Source: a virus (taxonomy: Duplodnaviria > Heunggongvirae > Uroviricota > Caudoviricetes). From it: a stretch of 14,654 bases of DNA. The notes beneath the pieces are model-generated. The model was not told the origin of the DNA, did no database searches, and saw nothing but the letters and a program-made list of their open reading frames with translations. Position 1 is the first letter of the stretch. Every line of letters begins with the position of its first letter. The stretch is from positions 1 to 14,654 of IMG/VR virus record IMGVR_UViG_2541047722_000008; one strand, 5' to 3'. A program made the position numbers and the translations under genes. This document shows, piece after piece, positions 1 to 13,968 of the stretch.

Positions 1-1119
1 TCAAATAACCAACTTAACCCATTCCTGACCTCGAGTATCGTTATAGCGATCGGTGGTTGCCTGGACTTTATGTCCTAGTAATGTTTTTGTATCGATACCC
101 TGTGCACGGTACAGCCGTTCTGATAGAGAGCGTTGTTCATGAAATGTTGGCGGAGTTTTTCCTGCTGGTGGAATTATCCCAGCCAGATCCCGTGCTTTGG
201 CAAAGTAGTCGCTCAGGTTGTCTTTACTCATCGGCTTCGGTTGTTTCTGGTGCCGACTATGGATTAGATATGGACTTAATATTCTGTCTCGGCACCCATC
301 AATAACTTCTTTTAACGTTATCCCAATGGCATCACAGCGTAGTGTAAGCGGTAACGCCAGACGCATTCCGGTTTTTCCCTGGGTGATATGCAAGTGTTCG
401 TTCCACACATCTGAAAAACGCATGTGGCAAATGTCATCACGGCGCTGACCAGTAACAATCGCAAGAAGCATTGCGTTACGGATAAAGTGTTTTTCAGGCG
501 TTGCATTGTAAATTTTTTGCCAGTCTTCCATGGTGAGCCTGGCTCTGGTTACTTTAGGGATCGGTTTACGGGTAGCCTCCGGAGGATTCCATCCAGGAGG
601 AACTTCCCCTGCATGCTGTGCTTCTTTATAAATATCAACCCATAATCCACGATTTACTCTCGCTGTGCTGACCATGTCTTTATCCAGCCACTCATCCAGT
701 ATTAATGCAAAGTCTCTTACTTCCAGTTCTTTCAATGGGTGGTTTCCCAGACGGGAAACCAGGTATGCAGCCATTCGGGTTTTTTCTTTGTGAGTTGTAG
801 CTGCAATATCTCCATTTTTCAGTCGCGTGTCCTGTATTTTCAGATATCGATCAACCCATGCCTTTAATCTGATACCCCGACGTTTTGTTGCTGACGGACT
901 TTCATCAATTTTGCGCATGAAATATTCAGCTTCTGCTGCAGCTATTCGCTGATTGGCTGTGGAAGCGATTTTTTCTGCCTTACCTTTGTCTGTTCCGAGT
1001 CCGTGAAATTTTCCAGTCACAGGATTTTTATACTGGTAGTAAACTCTGCCAGTTCTGCGATCAAACTTTTCGTAAAGACCGGCTACGTCAGTGCTGTTTT
1101 TTCGTGGCCTCGGTGACAT
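1..1119 (-). CDS. int: Tyrosine site-specific integrase (lambda Int family)
   Basis: 372-aa ORF, ATG at 1119-1117, stop at 3-1. The C-terminal half carries the tyrosine-recombinase pattern (…GQRRDD…, …HSRHQ…, …LLGHK…, …TDRY). It sits at the prophage end next to an excisionase-like gene. Confidence 0.9.
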   Translation of the reverse strand: MSPRPRKNSTDVAGLYEKFDRRTGRVYYQYKNPVTGKFHGLGTDKGKAEKIASTANQRIAAAEAEYFMRKIDESPSATKRRGIRLKAWVDRYLKIQDTRLKNGDIAATTHKEKTRMAAYLVSRLGNHPLKELEVRDFALILDEWLDKDMVSTARVNRGLWVDIYKEAQHAGEVPPGWNPPEATRKPIPKVTRARLTMEDWQKIYNATPEKHFIRNAMLLAIVTGQRRDDICHMRFSDVWNEHLHITQGKTGMRLALPLTLRCDAIGITLKEVIDGCRDRILSPYLIHSRHQKQPKPMSKDNLSDYFAKARDLAGIIPPAGKTPPTFHEQRSLSERLYRAQGIDTKTLLGHKVQATTDRYNDTRGQEWVKLVI

Positions 1120-1357
1120 GAGTTAAAATCTCCTTCAGTGCATCATCATCGCCAGTATGAATTTCCGGCGCAATTCCCGTTTCACCAGGCCCAACAAATA
1201 CTGCTCGGCGATCTATCAGCCAACGCCCACGAATTTTTTGTGGTCTTGGAACGATGTATCCTAGTTTTCCGTATTTCACCAGGGTAGTGTTTGTTATTGG
1301 GAGACTGAACCGTTTTGGTTTCCACTCGTCGAGCGTTATCAGGTACTGTTCGCTCAT
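1088..1357 (-). CDS. Excisionase-like small DNA-binding protein
   Basis: 89 aa from ATG 1357 (GGAG 8 nt upstream); the six-frame track extends it to a GTG at 1366. Immediately upstream of int with a 32-bp overlap, as in lambdoid xis-int pairs. Function assigned by position and size only. Confidence 0.55.
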   Translation of the reverse strand: MSEQYLITLDEWKPKRFSLPITNTTLVKYGKLGYIVPRPQKIRGRWLIDRRAVFVGPGETGIAPEIHTGDDDALKEILTHVTEATKKQH

Positions 1358-1418
1358 GGCTATCACTCCGGAACGCGCCAGTTGCAGAATATCAACGACA
1401 ACTGGCGACGGTTGAACA

Positions 1419-3860
1419 TTAAAAATCAGCCTGATTCGGGATCAGTTTTTGCCAGATAGCTGAAACGTATTTTGCCTGGTAACGAGCGTCATCAAGTGCA
1501 TTATGGCGCTCACCTTCGAATGGGATAGCAGTTCTGGCATCGAAGTCTATGGCTTTCCCCAGCTCAACGATTGTGCGTACATCGCGATCGTTGTAGTAAC
1601 GCCACGGGCAGGGGATCCCCTGCCGTTCGTATGAACGGCGCAAAATCGTGTTGTCGAAGTTGGCTCCATTTCCCCAGACCTGAACAAAAAATTCACCGGA
1701 GTTTTCGTCGATAAATTCCCGCAATTGTAACAGTGCATCATCTAACGGGATTTCATCGGTCATAATGGCAGATTGCGCTTCGCGTGATTGCTTAAGCCAC
1801 CATTTAATGGTGTCCCGATCAATGACTCCGCCAGCAGTTTCCAGATCGATAGTCTTACTAAATTCCGGTCCCATATCTCCGGTTTGCGGATCGAAAAATA
1901 TTGCACCTATTGAGATGATCGGGGCATCAGGATTTTTTCCCATGGTTTCAAGGTCGATCATTAGATGGTCACACGTCCTGCTGGTGGATGTGATTTCGTG
2001 ATGACCGTTCACCTTAATTGAGTGATCTGCCGTCTCGCCAGTTTTATTATCGCTGGCGTGATGCTGATTGCCGCCAGGGTTCTCCTTGTGTGGATGTTCA
2101 GCGCCTTCCATTTCCTCCGGATCATTTTCCTGAACTTCAACCTGATTCTCTTCATCGAATGTTTCCTGGTATGTTGCGTCGCCCATCACCGCGCCACAAT
2201 CAGGGCAGTTGCCGCCGCCGGTCTGACCGCAGGCGGTGCAGACTTTTTCCGGTTCCTGTTGCGCTACTGATTCGGATTGTTTCGTTTCTGGCTCGTTTTG
2301 TAACGCATTTGGGCTGTTTTGTTCCGCTTTTTGGTCGTTCCGTTCCGATTCATGCTGGTTCTGGTTCACAGAATCGCGAGTCTGGATCCCCTTGACCCAT
2401 TTCGGATCATTAGGGTCGCTAATCCCCTCAACAAATTCACCACGCGATACAGCAAGTAACTTATCGGCGTCAGGCTGGCTGATATTGGCTGCCTGCATAA
2501 TTTTGTTTACTTCGTCAGCGGTGACTTTTACTTGGTTAGCGGAACTCACCTGCGACTGAGCATCCAGCGACTGCGCGTTCTGGCCATGTTCAGTTGTATC
2601 CGGTTCCATTGTTTCAGTTGTTGCCTGTTCACCTGCCATTGCGTCAGATGGTTGTGGTTTTTCTTCTTCTGTTTCACGCTCAGTAACCACCTCGCGGTTA
2701 ATTTCTTCCAGGATATCTTTTTCCGGCGTATGCCGGGCAGCTGTGAGAGTTTCCTTGCTGGGGTTCTCGTGATCAGTTTCCGTCAAATAGGCGTTGATAT
2801 ACCCCTGAAGGCGTCCCGGGTAGTGATAAAATTCAGGGTGTGCGCTTCGGATAAGTGCAAAAATAGCGGCGCGGGAATAGTCCAGAATACCCGGGGTTGC
2901 ACGAAGTGCTGCGGACCATTCTTTGAACGGACTTTCTTTGTTCAGGACTACTTCTTTTGCGCGACGATAAACGCTGCCCGGAATTTCATAAATATTAAAA
3001 TCCATCGGAAGTGTGGCTGCTGCAATCTCCACATCCAGTGTGTCGAGGGTGTGTACTAAATTCGGATTGCGATCGGTTTTGTTCCCACCGCCAGCATTAG
3101 CACCGGAAGCCGTGCGGGTGATGCGTGAAACACGATTTCCTTTCATCCACTCTTTTGTCAGCAGACCCCGATCAGTGTAGTCAGCGTCCAGGTATGCTTC
3201 GAAAAAAGCAGTTATTAGTCCCAGGTCTGAATTACCAGGATTAGGGAAAACTTTGTCAGTGTCACGAACCAGTTTGTGGAGGTCGCGAATCTCCAGCGAG
3301 TCGAGCAGACTGGTTTTATGCGAAATAGCCAGGGCAGTAACAGCCGGTAGTTCTTCAGCCCGTGCAATGTGTAATGCCTGGAGTTCGTCGCGTGAAACGT
3401 GCGTTACTGGTTTTTCGCTGCCGTGTTGAGCAAGCCAACGAATGGGCAGTTCCTGACCGGAGACAGGCAGAAGCATGCTCTCCTCAATCTCAGTCATGTC
3501 TTCGCCGTTGATGTTGGTATTGTCAGTGCTGGCTGGTTTGTCCTGAACAGAGGGGGAAGGGCCGATAAATGTCATTGTGATGCCATCTTTCCCGCCTTTT
3601 TCATAGCGGTTGCAGAATTCAGTATCAAACACGCCTTCTGGCGGAAGGTCGTCAACAACGGGCAAATTGACGCGGACGGGTTTTTTAAAGTCGTCTTCAT
3701 CATAATCGTTGTCATCCATTGCGGTAATGCAGCGGGAGATTGCAACAGATAATTTTTTTGCTGTAGTCCAGTAAAAACCACCTTTAATTCCCAGGCGTTT
3801 TCTTACTTTGTCATTTTTTGCTTCGCAATATAGTGCAAATTCTTCTTTATCAGTGCTCAT
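1419..3860 (-). CDS. Large exonuclease: RecE-like (exodeoxyribonuclease VIII family) N-terminal region, acidic Q/E/N-rich linker, Cys4 zinc-ribbon motif, C-terminal DEDDh (DnaQ-like) 3'-5' exonuclease domain
   Basis: 813-aa ORF. The C-terminal ~180 aa (coords ~1422-1961) carries DEDDh motifs: MIDLETMG (Exo I), VWGNGANFD (Exo II), HNALDDA (Exo III). CTACGQ…CPDCG lies at ~2196-2243. The N-terminal ~300 aa resemble my recollection of the Rac RecE N-terminal region (…[39 protein letters not shown]…). Confidence 0.85.
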
Positions 3861-3953
3861 TATTGGTAAACCTCATCACAGATTTAAGGGTGAACAAATC
3901 TCTGCCATTGCTGACATATAAGAATGAAACTGGATATTTATTACGGTGCTGTT

Positions 3954-4145
3954 TTAAAATCCTGCCGGGATTTCGTTATTATCCTGGTGAATAACTTTAT
4001 CGACCGGGTAACAGTTACCGGGAATTTTCTGTTCGGTTGCTGCAGTCACACACTCCTGCATTGTCCTGTGAACACTGACTGCAATATCAACTGGCTCTCC
4101 GGAAACAAGAAAAAATGTCAGAACAAGTGCAAATGCTGTATTCAT
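3954..4145 (-). CDS. ydfD: YdfD-like small membrane (lysis-type) protein
   Basis: 63 aa from ATG 4145, which overlaps the upstream TGA (ATGA coupling); AGGA sits 8 nt upstream. N-terminal hydrophobic segment MNTAFALVLTFFLVSG. Position right after dicB matches Qin ydfD (63 aa). The track's longer version starts at 4199. Confidence 0.6.
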   Translation of the reverse strand: MNTAFALVLTFFLVSGEPVDIAVSVHRTMQECVTAATEQKIPGNCYPVDKVIHQDNNEIPAGF

Positions 4146-4330
4146 TGCCAGCATCCTTTTTGTATCGGACGTAAACGGGCCAGCATTGAAAGAATGCATA
4201 TTTTATTTAATAACTCCCGTTCGTGTTTTCTCTTGTTAATGGCATCTTCAGTAAATACAGGGTTACTGATAGTGACACCAATTTCAAAACAACCTTCAGA
4301 CGTATTAACGTTTGGTAATAACGTTTCCAT
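4142..4330 (-). CDS. dicB: DicB-like cell-division inhibitor
   Basis: 62 aa (METLLPNVNTSEGCFEIGVTISNPVFTEDAINKRK…), ATG 4330 with GAGGA 7 nt upstream. Same length as, and near-identical to, my recollection of E. coli DicB; located downstream of DicF as in Qin. Confidence 0.75.
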   Translation of the reverse strand: METLLPNVNTSEGCFEIGVTISNPVFTEDAINKRKHERELLNKICILSMLARLRPIQKGCWQ

Positions 4331-4499
4331 TATCGCGTCCTCAACAATGAATTTTGTGATGCAGTGCCTGGTGCCTCCAGGTGACGTTAACCAGTTAACA
4401 ATTAACGCCGGATACAGAGAATCCACCCATAACACTGTTTTTGGTTTTAACTGTTCCGCGTGCGCTTAGCCGCATTCACCGCATCACAAAATTCACTTT

Positions 4500-4557
4500 A
4501 AAAAGGGCGGCAGAGCAGTCACGGAGTAAAACTGATACCGCCAAACGTCACCAGAAA
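4500..4557 (-). ncRNA. dicF: DicF small RNA (ftsZ-targeting sRNA processed from the dicB operon transcript)
   Basis: Minus strand reads TTTCTGGTGACGTTTGGCGGTATCAGTTTTACTCCGTGACTGCTCTGCCGCCCTTTTT, matching the DicF sequence as I recall it, including the 3' GC stem (GGCGG/CCGCC) plus U-run. It lies between the ydfC-like and dicB-like genes as in Qin. Confidence 0.75.
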
Positions 4558-4898
4558 ATTGATAACAGAGGGCGTTGCAGCGGGGTTGTCACTTAAGCGT
4601 ATGGTCAACCTGACAACCCGGTGTCCTCAACGGGGGAAGGAATAACCCCGCCATACTTACCGCCGCGCCATTTCGCGGATTGCCACAACCGGAAGCGCAC
4701 GGTCGACGAAAATTTAACGACAGGCTATCTATGAACCAGCTACCTCGCCGTGCGCTTTCGCGTTATGGTCTGACTTTTCAGGGAAATATCCTTTCAGTAA
4801 ACTGTCAGTGCCGGATGCTCACCCGTGTCCGGCGCACGCACTCCACCTCACCCGTGGAGAACTCCTTAATTACCAACCTTAGCTTCGTTGGTTAGCTA

Positions 4899-5117
4899 TT
4901 AACGCGGGTATGTAATCATTCTGGCAATGCTTAATGCCGCTGCTTTTTCCAGATTGGTGATATCCTGCTCCAGAGCGGACAGATTTTCAGCCTGCTTAGC
5001 CCTGGCTTCATTAGCCCATTTCAGATCCTGCGCTGCATTAATTTTCTGGCGCATCCACTCATAAAGTTCATCATCGGTATAGTCTGGCGCGATGATGACG
5101 GGTTCTCGTTTCTGCAT
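4899..5117 (-). CDS. ydfC: YdfC-like small protein of the dicB operon
   Basis: 72 aa, ATG 5117 with AAGGAG 5 nt upstream. Same length and operon position as Qin YdfC; no motif recognised. Confidence 0.55.
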   Translation of the reverse strand: MQKREPVIIAPDYTDDELYEWMRQKINAAQDLKWANEARAKQAENLSALEQDITNLEKAAALSIARMITYPR

Positions 5118-5209
5118 GTCGGCTCCTTGTGGTTAGCGTTGCCTGCTTTTAACCACGTCAGGCGAGGTGGTATCCTCTGAGGGGTCTGTTACTCGAGAGG
5201 AAATTGGTT

Positions 5210-5410
5210 ATGAATACAATCAAGTTTTCTTGCCCAGAATGTGGTGGCGAAGTCTTTGACACATCCTTTAAGCCGCAGGGCTCTGACAGTTTCGCGGGAG
5301 CCATCTGCAAAAATTGTGGTCACCTTGTAACTGAAGATGAGTCCTCGCAGTTCGATGACGAAATCGTTGACAATATCTTCGGTGCACTCACCAGAGACTT
5401 TCTGAAATAA
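5210..5410 (+). CDS. Small zinc-ribbon protein (CxxC-N19-CxxC) with acidic C-terminal tail
   Basis: 66 aa: MNTIKFSCPECGG…CKNCGH…DESSQFDDEIVDN. ATG 5210 with GAGG 9 nt upstream; codons look typical for E. coli; a strong hairpin follows the stop. It conflicts with the antisense ORF 5189..5545, so this is not certain. Confidence 0.5.
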   Translation: MNTIKFSCPECGGEVFDTSFKPQGSDSFAGAICKNCGHLVTEDESSQFDDEIVDNIFGALTRDFLK

Positions 5411-5456
5411 AGACGCATACCGCTTAGTTACCGCTCTGATAACTCTTACCTGTCCG

Positions 5457-5500
5457 GCAATGGCGCTGATGTCAATATAAAGCGCCATTGCTGCTTCTTT
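5457..5500 (+). terminator. Hairpin (11-bp perfect stem GCAATGGCGCT/AGCGCCATTGC, 13-nt loop) followed by a T-rich stretch; putative terminator for the zinc-ribbon gene
   Basis: Perfect inverted repeat 5457-5467 / 5481-5491, then TGCTTCTTTG. The U-tract is weak, so factor-independent termination is uncertain. Confidence 0.35.
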
Positions 5501-5619
5501 GCCGATCCCGTGATGCCTTCCATTCTGATGTTTGACTTCGCCCACTGAGAAATCCTCTGTTTCCCCTTAACGCCGGGGTAGCGGAACTGTTTGCTGAGAA
5601 CACCGTGCGGTGTCTTGAT

Positions 5620-5680
5620 GAATAAAATTTAGAATAACCTAAGATATGTGGTCAAGATTTTTATGTAGAAAAACCTAAGT
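5620..5680 (-). promoter_or_regulatory. Candidate repressor-controlled leftward promoter (PdicB / pL analogue) with CTTAGGTT operator half-sites
   Basis: Minus strand: -35 TTGACC (5655-5650), 18-bp spacer, -10 TAAATT (5631-5626). The 8-mer AACCTAAG (= CTTAGGTT on the minus strand) occurs at 5636-5643 and 5672-5679, the same motif found at the divergent promoter on the other side of the repressor gene. Confidence 0.4.
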
Positions 5681-5753
5681 TTTTTGATGTGAAAAACACA
5701 AGTGTTTGAAAGTTTGTGCTTTTTATTACAGGGTGTGGAGAAAAAAGGGAGGG

Positions 5754-6161
5754 TTATTTGTTTGCGCTTCTTTTGCGAGCTTTGAGTAGTTCTTCAAAAA
5801 GTTTGTTGAAATTTTCAACTCGAGCACGCATCTCTGACAACAGGGCCTTTTGCTCTGACTCAGGCAGTGCGTCGAACAGTTGAAGTAACTCTTTTTGATC
5901 TTCTGTCAGAAGGGCTGGCTGATTATCCGGGATCGGTTCGCCTGGTTGTTTATCTTCATCCCCAAAAAGAAGCCAAGTCGGTGAGCACTGAAGCGCTTGG
6001 CTCAGTGCGAATAATCTTTTCCCCGCCGGCTGTGTTTCATCTCTTTCCCATTGAGAAATTGTTACGTGAGCCACTTTGACCAGCTTACCTAATGCGGCCT
6101 GAGACAGTTTTAATTTTTTACGCCTATGTAAGAGGCGAGCACCGAAGGTTTCGTTTTTCAT
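5754..6161 (-). CDS. dicA: DicA-like prophage repressor (XRE-family HTH; no LexA-like peptidase domain)
   Basis: 135 aa with an N-terminal HTH (…LKLSQAALGKLVKVAHVTISQWERDETQP…) and the C-terminal segment …LFALSQALQCSPTWLLFGDEDKQP…MRARVENFNKLFEELLKARKR, closely matching my recollection of E. coli DicA (135 aa). No Ala-Gly/Ser-Lys autocleavage module. Confidence 0.85.
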   Translation of the reverse strand: MKNETFGARLLHRRKKLKLSQAALGKLVKVAHVTISQWERDETQPAGKRLFALSQALQCSPTWLLFGDEDKQPGEPIPDNQPALLTEDQKELLQLFDALPESEQKALLSEMRARVENFNKLFEELLKARKRSANK

Positions 6162-6237
6162 ATTAGGGAATTCTAATTTTTCTTGACTTAGGTTTCTCTA
6201 CGATCTAGTTTCCTTAGGAAAATCTAAGGAGCTCGAT
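6162..6237. promoter_or_regulatory. Divergent promoter/operator region between the repressor and the cro-like gene
   Basis: Plus strand: -35 TTGACT (6183-6188), 17-bp spacer, -10 TAGTTT (6206-6211), AAGGAG (6226-6231) 6 nt before ATG 6238. CTTAGGTT at 6187-6194 overlaps the -35; further copies CCTTAGG (6212-6218) and CTAAGG (6224-6229). On the minus strand a TAGAAT (6175-6170) lies ~8 nt before the repressor ATG, suggesting a leaderless PRM-like transcript. Confidence 0.5.
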
Positions 6238-6465
6238 ATGTTGAAAATTGATGCTATAGCGTTTTTTGGCAGCAAAACAAAGCTTGCCAATGCCGCAGGA
6301 GTTAGGCTGGCAAGCATTGCTGCATGGGGGGAACTGGTTCCTGAAGGTCGCGCGATGCGCCTGCAAGAGGCATCCGGCGGGGAACTTCAGTACGACCCCA
6401 AAGTTTATGATGAATATCGTAAGGCAAAGCGGGCGGGGCGGTTGAACAATGAAAATCACCCCTGA
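6238..6465 (+). CDS. dicC: DicC/YdaS-family Cro-like regulator
   Basis: 75 aa (MLKIDAIAFFGSKTKLANAAGVRLASIAAWGELVPEGRAMRLQEASGGELQYDPKVY…), divergent from the repressor, strong SD. Matches my recollection of DicC/YdaS-family proteins. Confidence 0.8.
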   Translation: MLKIDAIAFFGSKTKLANAAGVRLASIAAWGELVPEGRAMRLQEASGGELQYDPKVYDEYRKAKRAGRLNNENHP

Positions 6466-7000
6466 ACAGGTTTGTGAGGCTCTGGATGCCTGGGTATGCC
6501 GACCAGGAATGACACAGGAGCAGGCGACGATATTAATCACGGAAGCGTTCTGGGCTCTGGAAGAACGCCCGAACATCGATGTTCAACGTGTCACGTTTGA
6601 TGATGGTGTGGTTGATCAACGGGCGCTGGGCGTTAACCGGGTGAAGATATTCGAACGCTGGAAAGCTATCGACACCAGGGATAAGCGGGAAAAATTCACG
6701 GCGCTGATTCCGGCAATTATGGAGGCTATCCGGATCAGTGATTTCAGGTTGTATTGTGAAATTACTGACGGAAAAAGCATTACGTACATGATCGCCAGGT
6801 TAAACAAAGAATATGGCGATGTGGTGGAGTCCGGACTGCTTTTTGCAGATCCTGCTGTTGTGGAACGTGAGACTGACGAGCTTATAGAAAAAGCTATTGC
6901 TTTCAAGCATGCGTATCGTCAGCAATACCAACATTACTTTGCAGATAAACAAATATCTGTCTGGGGTTCGTATGAGTATCGATGCACTACGATGGGCTAA
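6449..7000 (+). CDS. YdaT-like protein (proposed CII-like regulator / putative toxin of the YdaS-YdaT pair)
   Basis: 183 aa, overlapping the end of dicC by 17 bp. The N-terminus (MKITPEQVCEALDAW…) and its position directly after the Cro-like gene match the YdaT family as I recall it; assignment is by synteny and general resemblance. Confidence 0.6.
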   Translation: MKITPEQVCEALDAWVCRPGMTQEQATILITEAFWALEERPNIDVQRVTFDDGVVDQRALGVNRVKIFERWKAIDTRDKREKFTALIPAIMEAIRISDFRLYCEITDGKSITYMIARLNKEYGDVVESGLLFADPAVVERETDELIEKAIAFKHAYRQQYQHYFADKQISVWGSYEYRCTTMG

Positions 7001-8012
7001 AAAGGTGAAAACCGGCAGTTCATCCAGTAAGTCAGTATTAACCTGGCTTGCTGATATGTGCGGTGCCGATTTGTGTGCATACCCGTCTGTATCTGCACTG
7101 GCAGAAGTAACGGAACTGAACAAAAAGACTGTGCAGGACAGCTTACGACACCTGATGGAGATTGGGTTAATTGTTGATACCGGTGAGAGAAAAGGCCGAA
7201 CAAAGCAGATCGTAGTGTACCGACTTATCGGTGTTGAAGAAAGTGTTACCGAGGCTGAATACACCCAAAAATGGGAGTCTTTAAAGGTGGGTAAAATTGG
7301 TACTGTTAATAAAAACAGTACCGAAAATGGCTATGTTTCAGCACAAAACAGACCCAAAAACGGAACTCTTAGCTGCATGGAAAATAACCAAAGACACCCA
7401 AATTTTCCATCAAAGACACCCAAAAATGGATCACGGAACCCAAAGGAACCCAAAGATCTAAACCCCACACATAACACACGCGAGAGTGCTCCGACCAGTG
7501 AGCAGGAAGTTTTGTCGTTACAGGCAGCACCCCCTGTATTCCTGGATGGCCTGAGCGAACCCATCGGAAAATTTCCGATGACCGATAGCTGGTATCCGTC
7601 ACGGGATTTTCGACGACGGGCTGCGTTGTGGGGGATGGCTTTGCCGGAGACAGAATTTACACCTGCTGAACTTGCCGCCTTCCGGGACTACTGGACAGCG
7701 GAGGGGAAAGTGTTTACGCAGATTCAGTGGGAGCAGAAATTCGCCCGTCACGTAAATCACGTCAGGGCGCAGGTTAAACCAGTCAGCAAGGGGGTAAACC
7801 ATGCAGCAGCACCAGGTGGCACCGCATCACGGGCAGTTCAGGAAATTCGGGCAGCACGTGAGCAGTGGGAACGTGAAAACGGATTTATCAGCGACGGAAA
7901 CGGCCTGGAAGCTGTGGGAGCTCATGGGGGAGGTTTATTCGAACCGCTGGACCCAGAAGAATGGGGCCGCACCTTCGAAGCTCTGGATTGCACAGATTGG
8001 CGCGATGACTGA
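6972..8012 (+). CDS. Replication initiator, O-like: N-terminal winged-helix DNA-binding domain plus C-terminal DnaT-like domain
   Basis: In-frame ATG 6972 (MSIDALRWAKK…) preceded by GGGG. N-terminal HTH (…SVSALAEVTELNKKTVQDSLRHLMEIGLIV…); C-terminal region (…FTPAELAAFRDYWTAEG…) resembles the DnaT C-terminal domain. The ORF has good E. coli-like codon usage up to its stop at 8012, overlapping the next gene by 212 bp. The track's start at 6897 is inside the previous gene. Confidence 0.7.
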   Translation: MSIDALRWAKKVKTGSSSSKSVLTWLADMCGADLCAYPSVSALAEVTELNKKTVQDSLRHLMEIGLIVDTGERKGRTKQIVVYRLIGVEESVTEAEYTQKWESLKVGKIGTVNKNSTENGYVSAQNRPKNGTLSCMENNQRHPNFPSKTPKNGSRNPKEPKDLNPTHNTRESAPTSEQEVLSLQAAPPVFLDGLSEPIGKFPMTDSWYPSRDFRRRAALWGMALPETEFTPAELAAFRDYWTAEGKVFTQIQWEQKFARHVNHVRAQVKPVSKGVNHAAAPGGTASRAVQEIRAAREQWERENGFISDGNGLEAVGAHGGGLFEPLDPEEWGRTFEALDCTDWRDD

Positions 8013-8466
8013 GCAGCAAATCCGACAGGTCTGCCGCCAGTGCATGGACCGCTGCCGGGCGGGTGAAACATGGCCTCCGGACCTGGCTGAGTTTGTGGCA
8101 CTGATTTCGGAAAGCGGAGCCAATCCATTCGGTCTGACGGTGGATGCCGTGATGGAGGAGTACCGTCGCTGGCGCAACGAGTCCTGGCGATACGACGGGA
8201 GCGATAAATACCCGTGGTCTCAGCCTGTGCTGTATCACATTTGCCTCGAGATGCGTTCAAAGGGGATTGAGCGGCAGATGACCGAAGGGGAGTTAAAACG
8301 GCTTGCAGAACGGCAGCTGACGAAATGGGCAAAGCATGTTAGTAACGGCCTGAGCGTTCCGCCAGTCCGGCGACAACTGGCGGCCCCCAAACGTCCTGCG
8401 GGACCAACGCCAATTGAGTTGCTGAAACAGGAATATGAACGCCGGAAAGCGGCTGGGTTTGTCTGA
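7801..8466 (+). CDS. Lambda P-like replication protein (helicase loader family)
   Basis: 221 aa from ATG 7801 (AAGGGGG 6 nt upstream). Segments …PPDLAEFVAL…, …YPWSQPVLYHICLEMR…, …TEGELKRLAERQL… align with lambda P (…PSPGQFVAWC…, …YPWKSNAHYWLVTNLY…, …TDAELRRKAADEL…) as I recall it. An alternative start at ATG 8005 (ATGACTGA overlap with the O stop) would give 153 aa. Confidence 0.6.
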   Translation: MQQHQVAPHHGQFRKFGQHVSSGNVKTDLSATETAWKLWELMGEVYSNRWTQKNGAAPSKLWIAQIGAMTEQQIRQVCRQCMDRCRAGETWPPDLAEFVALISESGANPFGLTVDAVMEEYRRWRNESWRYDGSDKYPWSQPVLYHICLEMRSKGIERQMTEGELKRLAERQLTKWAKHVSNGLSVPPVRRQLAAPKRPAGPTPIELLKQEYERRKAAGFV

Positions 8467-8498
8467 TTTGAGAAGTAATTTTTACCGGGAGGAAATTT

Positions 8499-9269
8499 AT
8501 GGAGACTGTTTTTGACGCACTGAAAGCGATGGGAAAAGCCACGTCGGTAGAGCTGGCTGCGCGACTTGATATCAGTCGTGAAGAAGTGCTGAACGAGCTG
8601 TGGGAACTGAAAAAGGCTGGCTTCGTTGATAAAAGCGTATACACCTGGCGTGTGGCTGGCGAAGGTGAATCCGGGGTAGCCGAAGAGCAGCCAGCACAAT
8701 CTGAAGCACCGGATGTGCTAACCAGGGAGGTCGAACGAAAAGTTACCGCTGACATGATGATTGAGTTTATCGGTCAGGAGGGTGCTAAAACGAGTGAGGA
8801 ACTGGCGGGTAAGTTCGGTGTCAGCACTCGCAAGGTTGCTTCCACGCTGGCGGTAGTAACCGCAACGGGGCGGCTGGCACGCGTAAACCAGAACGGTAAA
8901 TTTCGCTACTGCATGCCGGGCGAGAATTTACCAGTAAAGCCGAAAGTCGCATCGGTAACGGAAAATGATGGTAAAGCCTTTCCTCAGCCAGCCGGCGTTG
9001 CGTTACCAGTACAGGAAGCTGCAACACAGGAAGATATTAAAACAGAAACTGTGGCGGACATTGTGCAGTCGTTGCCATCGTTCACCGAAACGCGAGCGGA
9101 TGACCTGATTTTACCATCGCTGCATATGGCAAACCGCGAACTGCGTCGGGCGAAAAATCATGTCCAGAAGTGGGAGCGTGTCTGCGCCGCGCTGCGGGAG
9201 TTGAACAAGCATCGGGATATTGTTCGACAGATTACTGATTTTTCCCGCCGTGTTGCATCGGAAAAGTGA
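8499..9269 (+). CDS. DUF1627-like prophage protein (two winged-helix-like repeats)
   Basis: 256 aa, GGGAGG 6 nt before ATG. Starts [41 protein letters not shown]… with a second similar repeat (…[33 protein letters not shown]…). Resembles a conserved family downstream of replication genes in E. coli lambdoid prophages. Confidence 0.65.
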
Positions 9270-9284
9270 TTGCCGGAGGCGCTT

Positions 9285-9689
9285 ATGGCAAAAGTATTTA
9301 CACAAGAAGAGCGGGAAAAAATTAAGGGGCAGATTGTTGAACTTGTACGTCTGAGCGGTCGCGAGACGTTACGGCAACTGGAAGCGAAAACAGGTGCGAC
9401 AAGATATCTGATGAGTGTTCTCGCCAGAGAGCTGGTTGCCAGTGGCGATGTATACAATTCTGGCTACGGGTTATTTCCGTCTGAACAGGCTCGTAAGGAC
9501 TGGCAAAACGCCCGCAAAAAACTATCGAGGGCAAAGGCGAAGAAACCGGTTGTGGTTGCTCCGGACCTTATCTGGTCATTACCAGACGGAGAAATACGCC
9601 GCTACGACAGGCGTCAGAACATGATTTGCCGTGAGTGCCGGGAAAGCGAAGTTATGCAGCGTATACTAACGTTCTATTGGGGAATATAG
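9285..9689 (+). CDS. Hypothetical protein (134 aa)
   Basis: ATG 9285 with GGAGG 5 nt upstream (the track's start at 9270 is a TTG). Contains a CRECRE motif near the C-terminus; no family recognised. Confidence 0.55.
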   Translation: MAKVFTQEEREKIKGQIVELVRLSGRETLRQLEAKTGATRYLMSVLARELVASGDVYNSGYGLFPSEQARKDWQNARKKLSRAKAKKPVVVAPDLIWSLPDGEIRRYDRRQNMICRECRESEVMQRILTFYWGI

Positions 9690-9704
9690 CCACTAAATAA
9701 GGTA

Positions 9705-10016
9705 ATGAACCAAATGAACACGGAAAAAGCGAAAACGCAGCTCAGGATAATGCTTGCCGGTCCGGCTGCGAGTTATACGACACATTCACCAGCCATAAAA
9801 AAGGTTCTTGATGAACTGGAAGCCAAAGACAAGCGCATTGCAGAACTGGAGGCAAGGGAAGTCCAGCTACCGGCTGGCTATGAACTTCGATATGGACACC
9901 CGATAAATGCTGATGAGCGCCATGTCATGATACCTAAGGAAAATGGCAGCTGGATTTATCTGGCTGATTTAGAGCGCGCACTACGTGTTGCTGGCATTCG
10001 CATCAAAGGAGAGTGA
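9705..10016 (+). CDS. Hypothetical protein, possibly ead/Ea22-like (103 aa)
   Basis: Central coiled-coil-like segment (VLDELEAKDKRIAELEAREVQL); closely spaced with its neighbours. Family assignment is tentative. Confidence 0.5.
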   Translation: MNQMNTEKAKTQLRIMLAGPAASYTTHSPAIKKVLDELEAKDKRIAELEAREVQLPAGYELRYGHPINADERHVMIPKENGSWIYLADLERALRVAGIRIKGE

Positions 10017-10017
10017 C

Positions 10018-10374
10018 GTGGAAATAAAACCAGAAGATGAGTTAAGTAATATTGTTTTATTTCCGGTAAAAGAAGATGACCCACGTAATCAGGTTAATTT
10101 TCTTTATGAGCCATCGGAAAGACCATATTGCCATCACGCTTCTGTCCGGGTTGATGAAAAAGAGCGTCAGGTCCGCTGTAAAATCTGCGGTGCAGTTGTG
10201 GAGCCGTTTGACTGGATGCTCTCTGTGGCGAAAAGAGAAACCAGACTGGCAGATGATGTAAGGCTATTGCGTCAGGAGGAACGGGAAAGGCGGAAAAATA
10301 TAGAAAAGCTAATTCAGATTGAGCGTAACGCAAAAGCGCGGATACGCAGAGCGACAAAATCCAGAACTGAATAA
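10018..10374 (+). CDS. Hypothetical zinc-finger protein with basic coiled-coil tail (118 aa)
   Basis: GTG 10018 with AGGAG 6 nt upstream, one nt after the previous stop. Motif C-HH…C-KIC-G (YCHHASVRVDEKERQVRCKICG) and an R/K/E-rich C-terminus. Confidence 0.5.
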   Translation: MEIKPEDELSNIVLFPVKEDDPRNQVNFLYEPSERPYCHHASVRVDEKERQVRCKICGAVVEPFDWMLSVAKRETRLADDVRLLRQEERERRKNIEKLIQIERNAKARIRRATKSRTE

Positions 10375-10469
10375 TTAAATTTAGCACTGTTAAAAATTTA
10401 ATCCTTAACCGGAGGGATTTCTGTACCCTCAGAACATCAGGAGGCCGCCTGAAAGGGCAGTAATGAAAA

Positions 10470-11021
10470 ATGACTGAATTAACAAAAGAGCAATTAATCG
10501 AAGAAGCTAAATTTAAAATAGCGATTGCGAAATGCCACCCTAATTCAGAGATGGCACGGGTAGAGGGTGAGTTATTCAAAATTGCACTGGCATCGCTGGA
10601 AGCGGAGCCTGTTGGTGAATTTTATGAGTATAAGCCGGGCGGCTGGTATCAGCATTCGGCTGGAGATAAAGCGCCAAAGTGGATACAACTCTACGCTGTG
10701 CCGCCAGCGCTCGCAGCACCTGAAGGACTGGTTAAAGCAGTGCGCTTTTATGAACAGGTAAAGCGTGAGAATCCACCAGTCGAAACAGGAGCATGGAAAG
10801 ATGCTGTTGATTGGGTACTCAAAGAGGCCTGCTGTGCTGTCATTCTGGGTAAAGCCGACAATCCATTAGCATCCAGTAACCAAGTTGGCGAATTAACAAT
10901 GTGGGTTAAACGACTGGTCAGTCAACTGAAAAAAGCTAATCCAGACTGCAAATTACCGGAGAAGGCGATGGACTACCTGAAGCGGAACGAACTGATAAGC
11001 GCGGAGGATGTTTTGCGATGA
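10470..11021 (+). CDS. Hypothetical protein (183 aa)
   Basis: Long ORF with E. coli-like codon usage, in the same orientation as its neighbours; weak SD; no motif recognised. Confidence 0.55.
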   Translation: MTELTKEQLIEEAKFKIAIAKCHPNSEMARVEGELFKIALASLEAEPVGEFYEYKPGGWYQHSAGDKAPKWIQLYAVPPALAAPEGLVKAVRFYEQVKRENPPVETGAWKDAVDWVLKEACCAVILGKADNPLASSNQVGELTMWVKRLVSQLKKANPDCKLPEKAMDYLKRNELISAEDVLR

Positions 11022-11134
11022 CCTGGCCTGAAGCATTCACAACGGTAGGAATTGCAATGGCGGTGGCGCTGGTGGTGTATTCGATTTGCCGCTGGGGGGA
11101 AGGTATTAAAAAACGCCCCGCACACAGACGTTGA
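11018..11134 (+). CDS. Small single-pass membrane peptide (38 aa), translationally coupled to the upstream gene
   Basis: ATG 11018 overlaps the upstream stop (ATGA). Peptide MTWPEAFTTVGIAMAVALVVYSICRWGEGIKKRPAHRR: hydrophobic helix plus basic tail. Below the length cut-off of the ORF track. Confidence 0.35.
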   Translation: MTWPEAFTTVGIAMAVALVVYSICRWGEGIKKRPAHRR

Positions 11135-11262
11135 GCGCCTGAGATGTGGGGATAGGGAGTTAGTTAAATAGTTGTACAACAATACCTGATTTTATATTGA
11201 AGCAAGAAATAGGTTGCTACATATTGAATCATGCGTGTGTACGTCAAATATGGGAGGTCATC

Positions 11263-11352
11263 GTGCTGGTTCTGAAATGTGCGCTGGCTATTGCGGCAGT
11301 AATGGCAATTTATTGTCTTGTTATCGTTCTTATGAATCACCTCTCTGATTGA
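11263..11352 (+). CDS. Candidate small hydrophobic peptide (29 aa)
   Basis: GTG 11263 with GGGAGG 5 nt upstream. Peptide (V/M)LVLKCALAIAAVMAIYCLVIVLMNHLSD is almost entirely hydrophobic. Ends at the hok promoter -35. Expression unproven. Confidence 0.25.
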   Translation: MLVLKCALAIAAVMAIYCLVIVLMNHLSD

Positions 11353-11359
11353 TTTTATA

Positions 11360-11388
11360 TTGGCGAGGTGACGTGAGTTAAGTAGAAT
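11360..11388 (+). promoter_or_regulatory. Candidate hok mRNA promoter
   Basis: -35 TTGGCG (11360-11365), 17-bp spacer, -10 TAGAAT (11383-11388). The downstream leader (…GCTTGAGGCTATCTGCC…GGCAGATAGAGAAAAGCCCC…) resembles the folded 5' region of R1 hok mRNA as I recall it. Confidence 0.4.
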
Positions 11389-11449
11389 TGCTGCGGGTGC
11401 TTGAGGCTATCTGCCTCGGGCATGAACACCAACGGCAGATAGAGAAAAG

Positions 11450-11520
11450 CCCCAGTTAACATTACGCGTCCTGCAAGACGCTTAACATTAATCTGAGGCT
11501 CAATCCATGCTGAACACATG
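11450..11520 (-). ncRNA. sok: Candidate Sok antisense RNA (approximate boundaries)
   Basis: Minus-strand promoter-like elements: -35 TTGCCT (11550-11545), 17-bp spacer, -10 TAACCT (11527-11522), antisense to the mok SD/start region as in hok/sok loci. A GCGTC/GACGC hairpin and U-rich stretch lie at ~11440-11480. Ends not determined. Confidence 0.35.
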
Positions 11521-11719
11521 TAGGTTAGCCTCTTACGTGCCGAAAGGCAAGGAGAAGCAGGCTATGAAGCAGCAAAAGGCGATGCTAATCGCCCTGATCG
11601 TCATCTGTTTAACCGTCATAGTGACGGCACTGGTAACGAGGAAAGACCTCTGCGAGGTACGAATCCGAACCGGCCAGACGGAGGTCGCTGTCTTCACAGC
11701 TTACGAACCTGAGGAGTAA
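11507..11719 (+). CDS. mok: Mok (modulator of killing) reading frame: N-terminal extension in frame with hok
   Basis: ATG 11507 with GAGG 8 nt upstream; MLNTCRLASYVPKGKEKQA then reads into hok, as I recall for chromosomal mokC/hokC. Confidence 0.55.
   Translation: MLNTCRLASYVPKGKEKQAMKQQKAMLIALIVICLTVIVTALVTRKDLCEVRIRTGQTEVAVFTAYEPEE
11564..11719 (+). CDS. hok: Hok/Gef-family type I toxin
   Basis: 51 aa MKQQKAMLIALIVICLTVIVTALVTRKDLCEVRIRTGQTEVAVFTAYEPEE: the Hok/Gef signature (TM helix, then TRKDLCEV.IRTGQTEVAVF.AYE). AAGGAG 9 nt upstream. Confidence 0.9.
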   Translation: MKQQKAMLIALIVICLTVIVTALVTRKDLCEVRIRTGQTEVAVFTAYEPEE

Positions 11720-11788
11720 GAGACCAGGCGGGGGAGAAATCCCTCGCCACCTCTGATGAGTCAGGCATCCTCAATGCACCCACACTTA

Positions 11789-11820
11789 ACCCGCTTCGGC
11801 GGGTTTTTGTTTTTATTTTC
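11789..11820 (+). terminator. Rho-independent terminator downstream of hok
   Basis: ACCCGC-TTCG-GCGGGT hairpin followed by TTTTTGTTTTTATTTT. Confidence 0.65.
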
Positions 11821-11939
11821 AACGCGTTTGAAGTTTTGGATGGTGCCGGAATAGAATCAAAAATACTTAAGTAGCGCGCAGGGAGAAGAGGGATGGACCC
11901 CGAACAGGGGAGTGCTATTTATCTGGAAGGATTCTGTTG

Positions 11940-12197
11940 ATGAAAATCGAAGAATTACGTGAAATTTTTAGTGAAGATGGCCTCTATACTGTGCGCGTTG
12001 AGAATGGCGCTATTGTCAGCCACTGCCGTATTAAATGTTTACAGTCTCAACAAAGGAAGAGTGGAGCTGCGTTAATTCATTTTGTGGATGGGCTTGTGAC
12101 GGATGGTTTTATTTTGCGTGCAAATGAATTTGTCACATCGTTGCCGTCTCTGAAAAAAGCTGGGATTAAGGCTGGTTTTTCTGCTTTTGAAGATTAG
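11940..12197 (+). CDS. Hypothetical small protein (85 aa), possibly Rem-like by position
   Basis: ATG 11940 (the track starts 3 nt earlier at a TTG), GGAAGGA upstream. Located between hok and the DUF968 gene, where Qin carries rem; no motif recognised. Confidence 0.45.
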   Translation: MKIEELREIFSEDGLYTVRVENGAIVSHCRIKCLQSQQRKSGAALIHFVDGLVTDGFILRANEFVTSLPSLKKAGIKAGFSAFED

Positions 12198-12266
12198 TGA
12201 ATTCATCTACAATTCAGCGCAGGGCTGAACCCCTGTTGAGTAACACTGTGCCACCGGAGAAAGCCG

Positions 12267-12545
12267 ATGGCGCAAAATTCCAGACTACACAATTCTGATA
12301 ATTCAGCCGTCTTTGTCAGCAGGCACGGGCGGCGTTCTCACACATTCAAATATGACTGGTACCAGCATGACCCCTGCACTGAAGAACAGGCCGAATGGCT
12401 GATTCAGAACTACCGCAGACGTGGGTATGTGTTTAGGAAAGCCCTCACCCTCGATTATCGTCTCTGGATAATCTCCGTCAGGCTCCCTTATTCCGAACGC
12501 CCGCCGCGTCCGTCCCGCACATTCCAGCAACGCATCTGGAGGTAA
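12267..12545 (+). CDS. Hypothetical protein (92 aa)
   Basis: ATG 12267 with GGAGA 6 nt upstream; its stop is one nt before the next gene's start. No motif recognised. Confidence 0.5.
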   Translation: MAQNSRLHNSDNSAVFVSRHGRRSHTFKYDWYQHDPCTEEQAEWLIQNYRRRGYVFRKALTLDYRLWIISVRLPYSERPPRPSRTFQQRIWR

Positions 12546-12546
12546 C

Positions 12547-13602
12547 GTGCGGGTATTGCTTCGACCTGTTCCTGTACCGGAACTTGGGCTGGTGGTCCTT
12601 AAGCCTGGCCGTGAATCCATGCAGGTATTTCATAACCCTCGAGTGCTGGTGGAGCCGGAACCGAAAAGCATGCGTAATCTGCCGTCCGGGGTCGTTCCTG
12701 CCGCTCGCCAGCCGCTGGTGGAAGACAAAACATTGCTGCCGTTTTTCAGTAACGCACGGGTGATTCGTGCTGCTGGTGGTGCTGGTGCATTGTCTGACTG
12801 GCTGTTGCGCCATATTAAATCCTGCCAGTGGCCACACGGCGATTATCATCACAGCGAAACCGTCATTCACTGTTATGGTACCGGCGCAATGGTGTTGTGC
12901 TGGCACTGCGACAACCAGCTGCGTGACCAGACATCCGAATCACTCGAGCAACTTGCTCATCAAAACCTGTCAGCATGGATGATTGACGTCATCGGTCACG
13001 CAATAAGCGGTACGCAGGAGCGTGAATTATCTTTGGCTGAATTATCCTGGTGGGCGGTCCGCAATCAGGTGGCGGACGCGCTACCGGAAGCGGTATTACG
13101 TCGTTCGCTGGGGTTGCGTGCGGAAAAAATCCGCTCAATGTACCGTGAAAGCGATATCGTACCGGGAGAGCAGACCGCCACCAGCATACTGAAGCAGCGC
13201 ACAAAAAATCTTGCGCCGCTGCCTCACGCCCACCAGCAAAACCCGCCACAGGAAAAGACGGTGGTCAGCATTGCCGTTGATCCGGAGTCACCGGCTCAGT
13301 ATCTCCAGCGCCAGAAACCACAACGGGAAGAGATGCCTGTATACACGCGCTGGGTAAAAACGCAGAAATGCATGACGTGCGGTAATCAGGCAGATGATCC
13401 GCATCACATCATTGGTCATGGACTGGGAGGGATGGGAACAAAGGCTGATGATTTGTTTGTTATTCCGCTGTGCCGTAAATGTCATAACGAACTGCACGCC
13501 GGGGTAAAAGATTTTGAAGAAAAACACGGCAGCCAGCTGTTGTTGCTGATTCGTTTTTTAATGCACGCGAGAAATTCGGGTGTCCTGAAGTGGAAAGCAT
13601 GA
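12547..13602 (+). CDS. DUF968-family protein with C-terminal HNH/His-Me-finger-like motif (YdfU-like)
   Basis: 351 aa, GTG 12547 with GGAGG upstream. C-terminal motif …CMTCGNQADDPHHIIGHGLGGMGTKADDLFVIPLCRKCHNELHAG… (Cys pairs flanking HH…H…N…H). Position before rusA/Q matches Qin ydfU (~349 aa). Confidence 0.7.
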   Translation: MRVLLRPVPVPELGLVVLKPGRESMQVFHNPRVLVEPEPKSMRNLPSGVVPAARQPLVEDKTLLPFFSNARVIRAAGGAGALSDWLLRHIKSCQWPHGDYHHSETVIHCYGTGAMVLCWHCDNQLRDQTSESLEQLAHQNLSAWMIDVIGHAISGTQERELSLAELSWWAVRNQVADALPEAVLRRSLGLRAEKIRSMYRESDIVPGEQTATSILKQRTKNLAPLPHAHQQNPPQEKTVVSIAVDPESPAQYLQRQKPQREEMPVYTRWVKTQKCMTCGNQADDPHHIIGHGLGGMGTKADDLFVIPLCRKCHNELHAGVKDFEEKHGSQLLLLIRFLMHARNSGVLKWKA

Positions 13603-13968
13603 ATGACTGAACGCATAGAATTTGTTTTGCCTTACCCGCCGACGGTGAATACCTACTGGCGACGTCATGGCAATACGTATTTCATCTCGGAGGCCGGAAA
13701 GCGTTATCGCCGTGATGTGGCGCTAATTGTTCGCCAGCAGCGGCTGAAATTAAACCTGTCCGGAAGGCTGGCGATAAAGATTATTGCAGAGCCACCGGAT
13801 AAGCGCCGTCGTGACTTGGACAATATCCTGAAGGCACCACTGGATGCGCTGACGCATGCCGGACTACTTATAGACGACGAGCAGTTTGATGAAATCAATA
13901 TTGTGCGCGGTCAGCTCGTTCCTGGTGGGCGGCTGGGGATAAAAATCACAGAACTGGAGTGCGCATGA
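13603..13968 (+). CDS. rusA: RusA Holliday-junction resolvase
   Basis: 121 aa with the RusA hallmarks (…LPYPPTVNTYWRRH…, …PDKRRRDLDNILKAPLDALT…, …GGRLGIKITEL…). Start immediately follows the upstream stop. Confidence 0.9.
   Translation: MTERIEFVLPYPPTVNTYWRRHGNTYFISEAGKRYRRDVALIVRQQRLKLNLSGRLAIKIIAEPPDKRRRDLDNILKAPLDALTHAGLLIDDEQFDEINIVRGQLVPGGRLGIKITELECA

Follow-up and report, generated by a model that had tools for sequence, protein, structure and literature searches.

A 212-nucleotide overlap between a prophage initiator gene and its lambda P-family helicase loader gene probably encodes both proteins, with the initiator tail likely overprinted on the loader gene

Can two consecutive replication genes of a lambdoid prophage share more than two hundred nucleotides (nt) of coding DNA in different frames, and how would both proteins be accommodated there? 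The question is raised by a stretch of 14,654 nt (positions 1 to 14,654 of the IMG/VR virus record IMGVR_UViG_2541047722_000008, Caudoviricetes; the window), in which the gene of a replication initiator runs far into the gene of a lambda P-family helicase loader. An earlier annotation made from the letters of the window (the sequence-only reading) had named the two products O-like and P-like and had offered three options: true dual coding, a frameshift that lengthened the initiator gene, or a loader that really starts at ATG 8005. The following features are needed for the argument.

6972..8012, + strand: initiator coding sequence (CDS), 346 amino acids (aa), in the open reading frame (ORF) 6897..8012, whose first ATG is 6972; RefSeq has the same CDS.
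7572..7772, + strand: DnaT DNA-binding domain, initiator residues 201-267 (Pfam PF17948; predicted local distance difference test score, pLDDT, ~85 in the AlphaFold2 (AF2) model).
7788..7794, + strand: putative Shine-Dalgarno (SD) motif AAGGGGG for the loader, six nt before ATG 7801, lying in the initiator linker and read there as K-G.
7801..8466, + strand: predicted CDS of the lambda P-family helicase loader, 221 aa (ORF; PF06992; start codon kept in relatives).
7801..8012, + strand: probable dual-coding overlap, 212 nt, with the loader in the +1 frame relative to the initiator and both frames open.

The shared DNA consists of the last 70 initiator codons and the first 70 loader codons, and the ORF listing agrees with the earlier statement that both frames are open from 7801 to 8012. 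The comparison was carried out on 28 loci from Escherichia, Salmonella, Citrobacter, Enterobacter, Klebsiella, Pluralibacter, Kluyvera, Pectobacterium, Erwinia, Rahnella, Buttiauxella, Dryocola, Samsonia, Yersinia, Limnobaculum and one Vibrio phage. Overlaps of 149-227 nt were found, the initiator ORF ending 26-98 nt 3' of the codon for loader W50. The overlap is present in Vibrio phages D77, D68 and pA2SJ1; in the latter two, checked by hand, the loader ATG lies 173-230 nt upstream of the initiator stop. Inspection of the same locus in related phages, which the sequence-only reading had proposed as a check, thus returned the overlap layout in 28 loci and two Vibrio phages.

Outside the overlaps of these loci, off-frame stops occur at 5.1% of codons for the initiator frame inside the loader gene (downstream of the initiator stop) and at 4.2% for the loader frame inside the initiator gene (upstream of the loader start). 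Inside the overlaps no stops were seen (0/1902 and 0/1930). In a recoding simulation one protein was held fixed, its synonymous codons were resampled and the other frame was scored as open or not. The median per-locus probability was 0.03 for an open initiator frame given the loader protein and 0.22 for an open loader frame given the initiator protein, values that cannot simply be multiplied because the loci are related. Both frames are actually open in 28/28 loci. They are also open in 80/80 E. coli viral contigs (36 overlap haplotypes); the viral-contig scan gave near-identical E. coli contigs only, which were used for polymorphism.

Two Erwinia loci carry an orphan loader without an initiator. 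In one (L033), a TAA stands in the tail frame exactly where Glu (E324 in the window) is otherwise kept; in the other (L028), the tail frame is interrupted further upstream and a ttcA-like gene adjoins. Both belong to a set of degraded copies, which has two further members. In that of Leclercia adecarboxylata (L031) a frameshift runs the loader N-terminus into the initiator tail, and the copy in Symbiopectobacterium (L035) is pseudogenised.

The downstream gene belongs to the lambda P family. PF06992 (Phage_lambda_P) matches loader residues 56-188 with 61.4 bits against a cut-off of 26, phrog_109 ('P-like helicase loader') covers residues 19-220 (E=4e-63), and a sequence search of the PDB returned lambda P chains (E=6e-4). 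The top Foldseek matches of the AF2 model (mean pLDDT 69.7) in the PDB were the lambda P chains of 9oa1 (probability 1.0). Domain III superposed on 8v9s with a template modelling (TM) score of 0.91 and a root-mean-square deviation of 1.2 Å over 74 residues, as expected of a lambda P fold. The earlier naming of the gene as P-like is borne out by its PF06992 match and modelled fold, and DnaB binding and loading by its product are predicted from the same family and fold. In the model residues 1-29 are disordered and helices occupy 31-54, 60-68 and 71-86. This arrangement parallels that of lambda P, in which domain I (residues 1-29) is intrinsically disordered and domain II spans ~30-119 (PMC12661323).

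The position of the loader start was addressed by aligning 28 homologues, the most distant of them at 45% identity. Strong conservation begins at about residue 35, with the consensus AWxLWExMxEIYSNRWTxKNGxxPSxLWIAQIG. Residues W39, W50, K53, N54, G55, P58 and W62 are invariant or nearly so, and all of them are encoded 5' of ATG 8005. The lambda P alignment runs through this segment, so that the aromatic stretch previously described as conserved-looking and alignable to lambda P is both. The loader of phage phiV10, whose gene overlaps that of its initiator by merely 4 bp, aligns from residue 18. An ATG is found 40-50 codons upstream of W50 in 28/28 loci. In about half of them an in-frame stop lies within two codons before this far-upstream ATG, and in most a GGAGG, GGGAGG or AGGGGG-type motif precedes it by ~4-11 nt. 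The SD of the window, read as AAGGGGG at the positions given earlier, appears in the initiator frame as a recurring G/GG, of which G274 is invariant (25-sequence alignment A3). From these sequence comparisons the loader is predicted to start at ATG 7801, from its own SD.

The upstream gene has the RefSeq name 'DnaT-like ssDNA-binding domain-containing protein'. Its product consists of an N-terminal winged helix-turn-helix, a long disordered linker, a DnaT-type domain and a conserved C-terminal tail. PF17948 matches with 61.3 bits against a cut-off of 25, which makes it a DnaT-domain protein; this domain is the last part of the initiator outside the overlap. HTH_36 is the best N-terminal Pfam match, with 21 bits under a cut-off of 25. 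The NCBIfam DnaT model gave 94 bits, under its equivalog cut-off of 201, and the initiator is therefore not DnaT itself. The Pfam search gave no match to Phage_rep_O (PF04492), placing the initiator outside the lambda O family, and no lambda O C-terminal domain; a relative with the same tail (L019) has PF04492. The earlier label 'O-like initiator' is thus right as to role and position and wrong as to family: it describes a functional analogy.

How can one DNA segment satisfy two proteins? Four features within the overlap suggest a division of labor between the frames.

7830..7877, + strand: initiator residues 287-302, RAVQEIRAAREQWERE, a conserved predicted helix (AF2); the initiator frame is constrained here.
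7878..8009, + strand: initiator residues 303-346, a predicted disordered acidic tail, ..GG.LFEPLD.EEW..D..D..DD (pLDDT <50), kept open and acidic.
7801..7887, + strand: loader residues 1-29, a predicted disordered leader (pLDDT ~30; identity 0.07-0.4) at the position of lambda P domain I.
7891..8004, + strand: loader residues 31-68, AWKLWELMGEVYSNRWTQKNGAAPSKLWIAQIGA, the conserved predicted helices that open domain II (AF2); the loader frame is constrained here.

In the AF2 model of the initiator the well-ordered DnaT domain is followed by a disordered linker (269-284) that holds the loader SD and ATG, then by the helix 287-302 and a disordered end. The models thus place the predicted order of each protein over predicted disorder of the other, in both directions. 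Amino-acid identity among distant pairs follows the same division: at 7831-7860 it is 0.40 in the initiator frame and 0.20 in the loader frame, and at 7891-8009 it is 0.26-0.38 and 0.42-0.53, respectively. Synonymous diversity in the loader frame has an observed/expected ratio of 0.61 for residues 2-34 (Mann-Whitney p=1e-8), 0.91 for residues 35-70 (p=0.046) and 1.0 downstream. Suppression in the second half is confined to the codons of G43, S47, Q52 (0.04) and K53 (0.14), the third bases of which set Gly or Glu, or would make a stop, in the initiator motif GG.LFEPLD.EEW. Initiator residues E329 and E330, held by the suppressed synonymous change at Q52 and K53, are 0.84 identical among distant pairs. 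The acidic C-terminus noted in the sequence-only reading is therefore a kept property of the tail.

Polymorphism within E. coli shows the switch as well. Of the single-nucleotide polymorphisms at or before 7873, 11 are synonymous in the initiator and 3 in the loader; at or after 7887 the numbers are 7 and 16 (Fisher p=0.007). At 7962 the window has TGG (initiator Trp331; synonymous in the loader, at N54) and 79/80 of the E. coli viral contigs have CGG (Arg); W and R alternate at initiator position 331 family-wide.

Several points weigh against an overlap that is dual-coding and partitioned throughout. The 28 loci are phylogenetically related and their statistics are not independent. The first ~30 loader residues are weakly conserved, and a non-ATG start within codons 1-35 is possible at individual loci. 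The pLDDT of the tail helix is low (51-68). In the second half the synonymous suppression is marginal, as the ratio of 0.91 (p=0.046) indicates, and most of the conservation seen in the initiator frame follows from constraint on the loader frame. When initiator-frame identity in this half was compared with a synonymous-recoding null, z=11 was obtained, just moderately above the worst of four control segments (z=1.6-6.9); selection on the distal tail therefore appears real but modest. With these points included, openness beyond chance, suppressed synonymous sites and the conserved SD and ATG make true dual coding of 7801-8012, the first of the earlier options, very probable. The codon-usage argument put forward with it is not needed. 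The fuller account, comprising two separately initiated proteins, the 212-nt overlap, its partition and an overprinted tail, is also probable from the sequence comparisons, to a somewhat lesser degree.

Which frame came first? The loader genes of lambda, phi80 and phiV10 have no long overlap, and the N-termini of the lambda and phiV10 loaders align with that of the window. The loader frame is therefore likely to be ancestral, and the initiator tail would then be an overprinted extension. The initiators of the related loci have unrelated bodies. Among their N-terminal types are HTH_36, DUF1376, Phage_rep_O and several without classification, some but not all have a DnaT domain in the middle, and all end in the same tail. 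The shared tail starts near '..GG.NHA', to which the loader SD and ATG correspond in the initiator frame. Since one tail is found on unrelated initiator bodies, the tail and the loader move as one cassette. By sequence comparison the C-terminal half of the loader is more widely shared than its N-terminal ~92 residues. Phage phi80 gp14 shares only residues 93-221 (49% identity), and its partner is a lambda O-type initiator with a 4-bp overlap; phiV10 has a DnaT-domain initiator without the tail and a P-family loader, again with a 4-bp overlap. As phi80 gp14 shares residues 93-221 only, the N-terminal ~92 loader residues and the initiator tail are likely to form a partner-specific unit that travels together.

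In lambda, partner specificity resides towards the C-terminus of O and towards the N-terminus of P. By analogy, the following course of events is proposed. The loader would initiate at ATG 7801 from the SD inside the disordered linker of the initiator, and the initiator would be read on for 70 further codons in the -1 frame. The first ~90 nt would encode the conserved initiator helix together with a disordered, freely varying loader leader; the last ~120 nt would encode the first conserved helices of loader domain II together with the disordered acidic end of the initiator. The tail, helix and acidic end together, would recruit the loader-DnaB complex to the origin-bound initiator. Recombination just 5' of the loader SD would let any initiator body gain the tail. 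With the tail encoded within the loader gene, docking peptide and loader would be inherited together and never be split by recombination. That the tail docks the loader, as its context and the O-P specificity of lambda suggest, is given a chance a little short of even. More tentatively, the whole loader gene may be a portable adaptor cassette, its own first 70 codons overprinted with a docking peptide for whichever initiator lies upstream.

If the cassette is real, an origin-binding protein that recombines in frame before the loader SD would instantly gain a matched loader-recruiting tail. A physical mechanism would then keep interacting surfaces together despite the mosaic recombination of lambdoid phages, and the presence of at least 5-6 unrelated initiator architectures with one loader type, from Enterobacterales to Vibrio, would be explained. 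Should the tail dock the loader, the locus would show how the specificity of helicase recruitment survives modular exchange. It would also provide a defined peptide-domain pair, relevant to the domesticated DopC/DopE and VdhL loaders considered below.

The most serious alternative accepts both proteins and assigns the tail another role. The tail could bind DnaB, the single-stranded DNA-binding protein SSB or another host factor, it could regulate the initiator, or translational coupling could set the ratio of the two products. Its acidic, aromatic end resembles the short linear motifs that bind replication proteins. Moreover, the loader SD and ATG lie inside a translated region, so translation of the initiator must affect initiation of the loader. 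Against this, the tail strictly co-occurs with this type of loader N-domain, initiators whose loaders have an N-terminus of the lambda, phi80 or phiV10 type lack it, and the N-terminal ~92 residues are the partner-specific half of the loader. Co-occurrence and loader N-terminal specificity, as read from the sequences, favour contact between tail and loader, and a tail that does not dock the loader is held to be rather unlikely.

Could the loader start further downstream? A start at ATG 7924 (M42), as in the homologues annotated with 180 aa by the Prokaryotic Genome Annotation Pipeline (PGAP), would reduce the overlap to 89 nt, and residues 1-41 would not be made. M42 is nearly invariant, many database entries have 179-181 aa, and the residues that would be lost include the poorly conserved, predicted disordered 1-29. 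However, M42 is preceded by the invariant W39 and by the conserved A35-W36-x-L38. No ATG is present at this position in three loci (L022, L025 and L026), and the loader of Vibrio phage D77 has no Met there. The spacing from GGGAG to ATG 7924 is 3 nt only, whereas in most loci the SD of the far-upstream ATG is well spaced, and this ATG often comes soon after an in-frame stop. An M42 start is unlikely, with little probability left to it, and ATG 7801 is retained as the predicted start.

It was also considered that the initiator ends at about residue 275, after the DnaT domain, and that the 70-codon extension is a functionless product of a frameshift or lost stop, the second of the earlier options. 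The DnaT-domain initiators of phiV10 (275 aa) and SPN1S (271 aa) end there, and the profiles phrog_1032 and phrog_2509 stop near residues 278-298. Yet these two initiators are of other subfamilies with other loader arrangements. In the subfamily of the window the tail is open in every intact locus, against the median chance of 0.03 per locus, and over the tail helix the initiator frame is better conserved than the loader frame. Homologues that share 50-57% identity with the initiator match over 100% of its length and align to the last residue of the tail, where the sequence-only reading had allowed that all might end near residue 275; the tail is therefore not a frameshift artefact. It is also carried by unrelated initiator bodies. 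A phmmer search with the 79-aa tail gave 26 matches; among proteins of ~320-360 aa the match is the extreme C-terminus, and many of the others are short fragments. Only fragments came from a word-indexed search that used the tail by itself as query. A frameshift artefact is excluded by these comparative data, and very little likelihood remains for it.

Equally improbable is programmed +1 frameshifting that would yield an initiator-loader fusion protein, even though phrog_15931 (482 positions) matches both frames and the database protein P0107 runs from the tail frame on into that of the loader. With a conserved SD and ATG of its own, the loader does not need a programmed frameshift. P0107 also enters the downstream gene and a second protein, P0081, is a deletion fusion; both therefore look like indel or degraded copies. 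As natural fusions of Rosetta-stone value they were rejected, since they appear to be indel or deletion products of degraded prophages; apart from these two proteins and the phrog_15931 profile, programmed frameshifting has no support. Profile phrog_15931 is listed under 'unknown function'. Initiator residues 161-345 correspond to its positions 163-347 and loader residues 4-221 to its positions 281-482; since both proteins match one profile, it appears chimeric, merging the two frames.

The last of the earlier options, a 153-aa loader starting at ATG 8005 (M69) with an ordinary 8-nt overlap and an accidental open frame upstream, has next to no probability and is excluded by comparative data: RefSeq annotates it in two E. 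coli genomes and in phage Rac-SA53 and the Pfam envelope begins only at residue 56, but the family homology begins at about residue 35 and not at MTEQQ, the seven conserved residues from W39 to W62 lie upstream of M69, position 69 is Leu in the family consensus and usually Leu among relatives, the phiV10 N-terminus from the gene with the 4-bp overlap aligns from residue 18, predicted helices occupy 31-54 and 60-68, and phrog_109 covers 19-220.

Public annotation of the loader is accordingly uneven. In the two E. coli genomes (L001 and L002) and in phage Rac-SA53 the RefSeq PGAP start at ATG 8005 gives 153 aa; because P-family conservation starts upstream of this codon, the entry is truncated. 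The PPompW phage records start at ATG 8044 (140 aa). Salmonella, Klebsiella and Citrobacter homologues are mostly annotated with 179-181 aa, from the equivalent of M42, and Vibrio phage records likewise shorten the loader. Entries from other pipelines have 221-223 aa. Phage records with a shortened loader include LC567836, KU052037, OZ195826 and OR813779. The truncation evidently serves to avoid a long overlap, and among the shortened versions (140, 153 or 180 aa) it removes the invariant residues W39, W50, K53, N54, G55 and W62. Structural or functional work begun from database entries would use a truncated loader. The module is also found in many other Enterobacterales and in Vibrio phages, and the shortening of the loader in public annotation is systematic.

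The arrangement was compared with known systems. As in lambda O-P, phi80 gp15-gp14 and phiV10 gp43-gp44, the gene of an origin-binding initiator stands directly before a PF06992 loader gene. The loader fold is shared with lambda, as is the location of the partner-specific parts in the initiator C-terminus and the loader N-terminus, and the C-terminal half of the present loader is 49% identical to phi80 gp14. In contrast to the 4-bp overlap of lambda, phi80 and phiV10, 212 nt are shared here. Unlike lambda O, the present initiator is a DnaT-domain protein without Phage_rep_O, and its C-terminal element lies in the second frame of the loader gene. The two peptides that the sequence-only reading had quoted were found in the sequence exactly as given.

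Classical overprinted phage genes are phiX174 D/E and A/B/K and lambda Rz/Rz1. The present overlap resembles them in same-strand, out-of-frame dual coding, in having one older frame and in disorder lying over order. It differs in being a tail-on-head overlap of consecutive genes of one pathway, in that the products are expected to be physical partners and in that the constrained frame switches midway. Viral overlapping genes have been reviewed (PMC8227390, PMC6195259).

DopC/DopE, a lambda-like pair that has been domesticated, was put forward as a third kind of helicase matchmaker (Brezellec et al. 2017, PMC5509034). Its first protein likewise combines HTH_36 with a DnaT C-terminal motif, and the P domain follows in the second; unlike the present pair DopC/DopE is chromosomal, in Cellvibrionales and Oceanospirillales, and that paper makes no mention of an overlap. 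VdhL1/2 and Vibrio phage loaders are remote PF06992 relatives that adjoin lambda O-like genes and are mobile as a pair (PMC11087808). There too the loader adjoins an initiator gene, although no overlap is reported in that paper. No published description of the present overlap was found in the paper library searched, including the closest papers, on DopC/DopE, VdhL, lambda P structure and genetics, and E. coli out-of-frame remodelling. A passage in PMC3640518 may be a distant echo of an initiator extension into a loader gene. The lambda-type initiator/loader module and overprinted phage genes are known, and the long conserved overlap of initiator tail and loader appears to be new. It offers a clean, deeply conserved case of a long same-strand overlap in a bacterial virus, useful for the study of how overprinting arises and persists.

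The window carries the replication module, in the early-right block, of an E. coli lambdoid prophage of the Qin/Rac/Sp type, with the following genes around the pair.

5754-6161, minus strand: dicA-like repressor.
Between the dicA-like repressor and YdaT in gene order: cro/dicC-like gene.
6449-7000: YdaT, followed by the initiator.
8499-9269: DUF1627 gene, next after the loader.

The 1.6 kb from 6900 to 8500 has matches in 1261/5426 complete E. coli genomes, O157:H7 included, of which 907 cover >=80% of the query. The YdaT-family gene and the initiator (ATG 6972) overlap by 29 nt, and RefSeq annotation has the same layout. The DUF1627 gene is intact here (256 aa), whereas the annotation of the closest RefSeq genome (E. 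coli 2017-02-2CC, L001 4600-5369) gives it as frameshifted.

Iteron-like direct repeats of 10-24 nt are present at 7258-7454, within the DNA encoding the disordered linker of the initiator. They comprise three copies of a ~24-nt type, AAnACACCCAAAAATGG, three of CAAAGACACCCAAA and a tandem GGAACCCAAA. By analogy with lambda, where ori lies inside O, they may constitute the origin of the prophage. At the protein level the repeats appear as recurring PKNG motifs, and similar NDPKNG repeats are found in phiV10 gp43.

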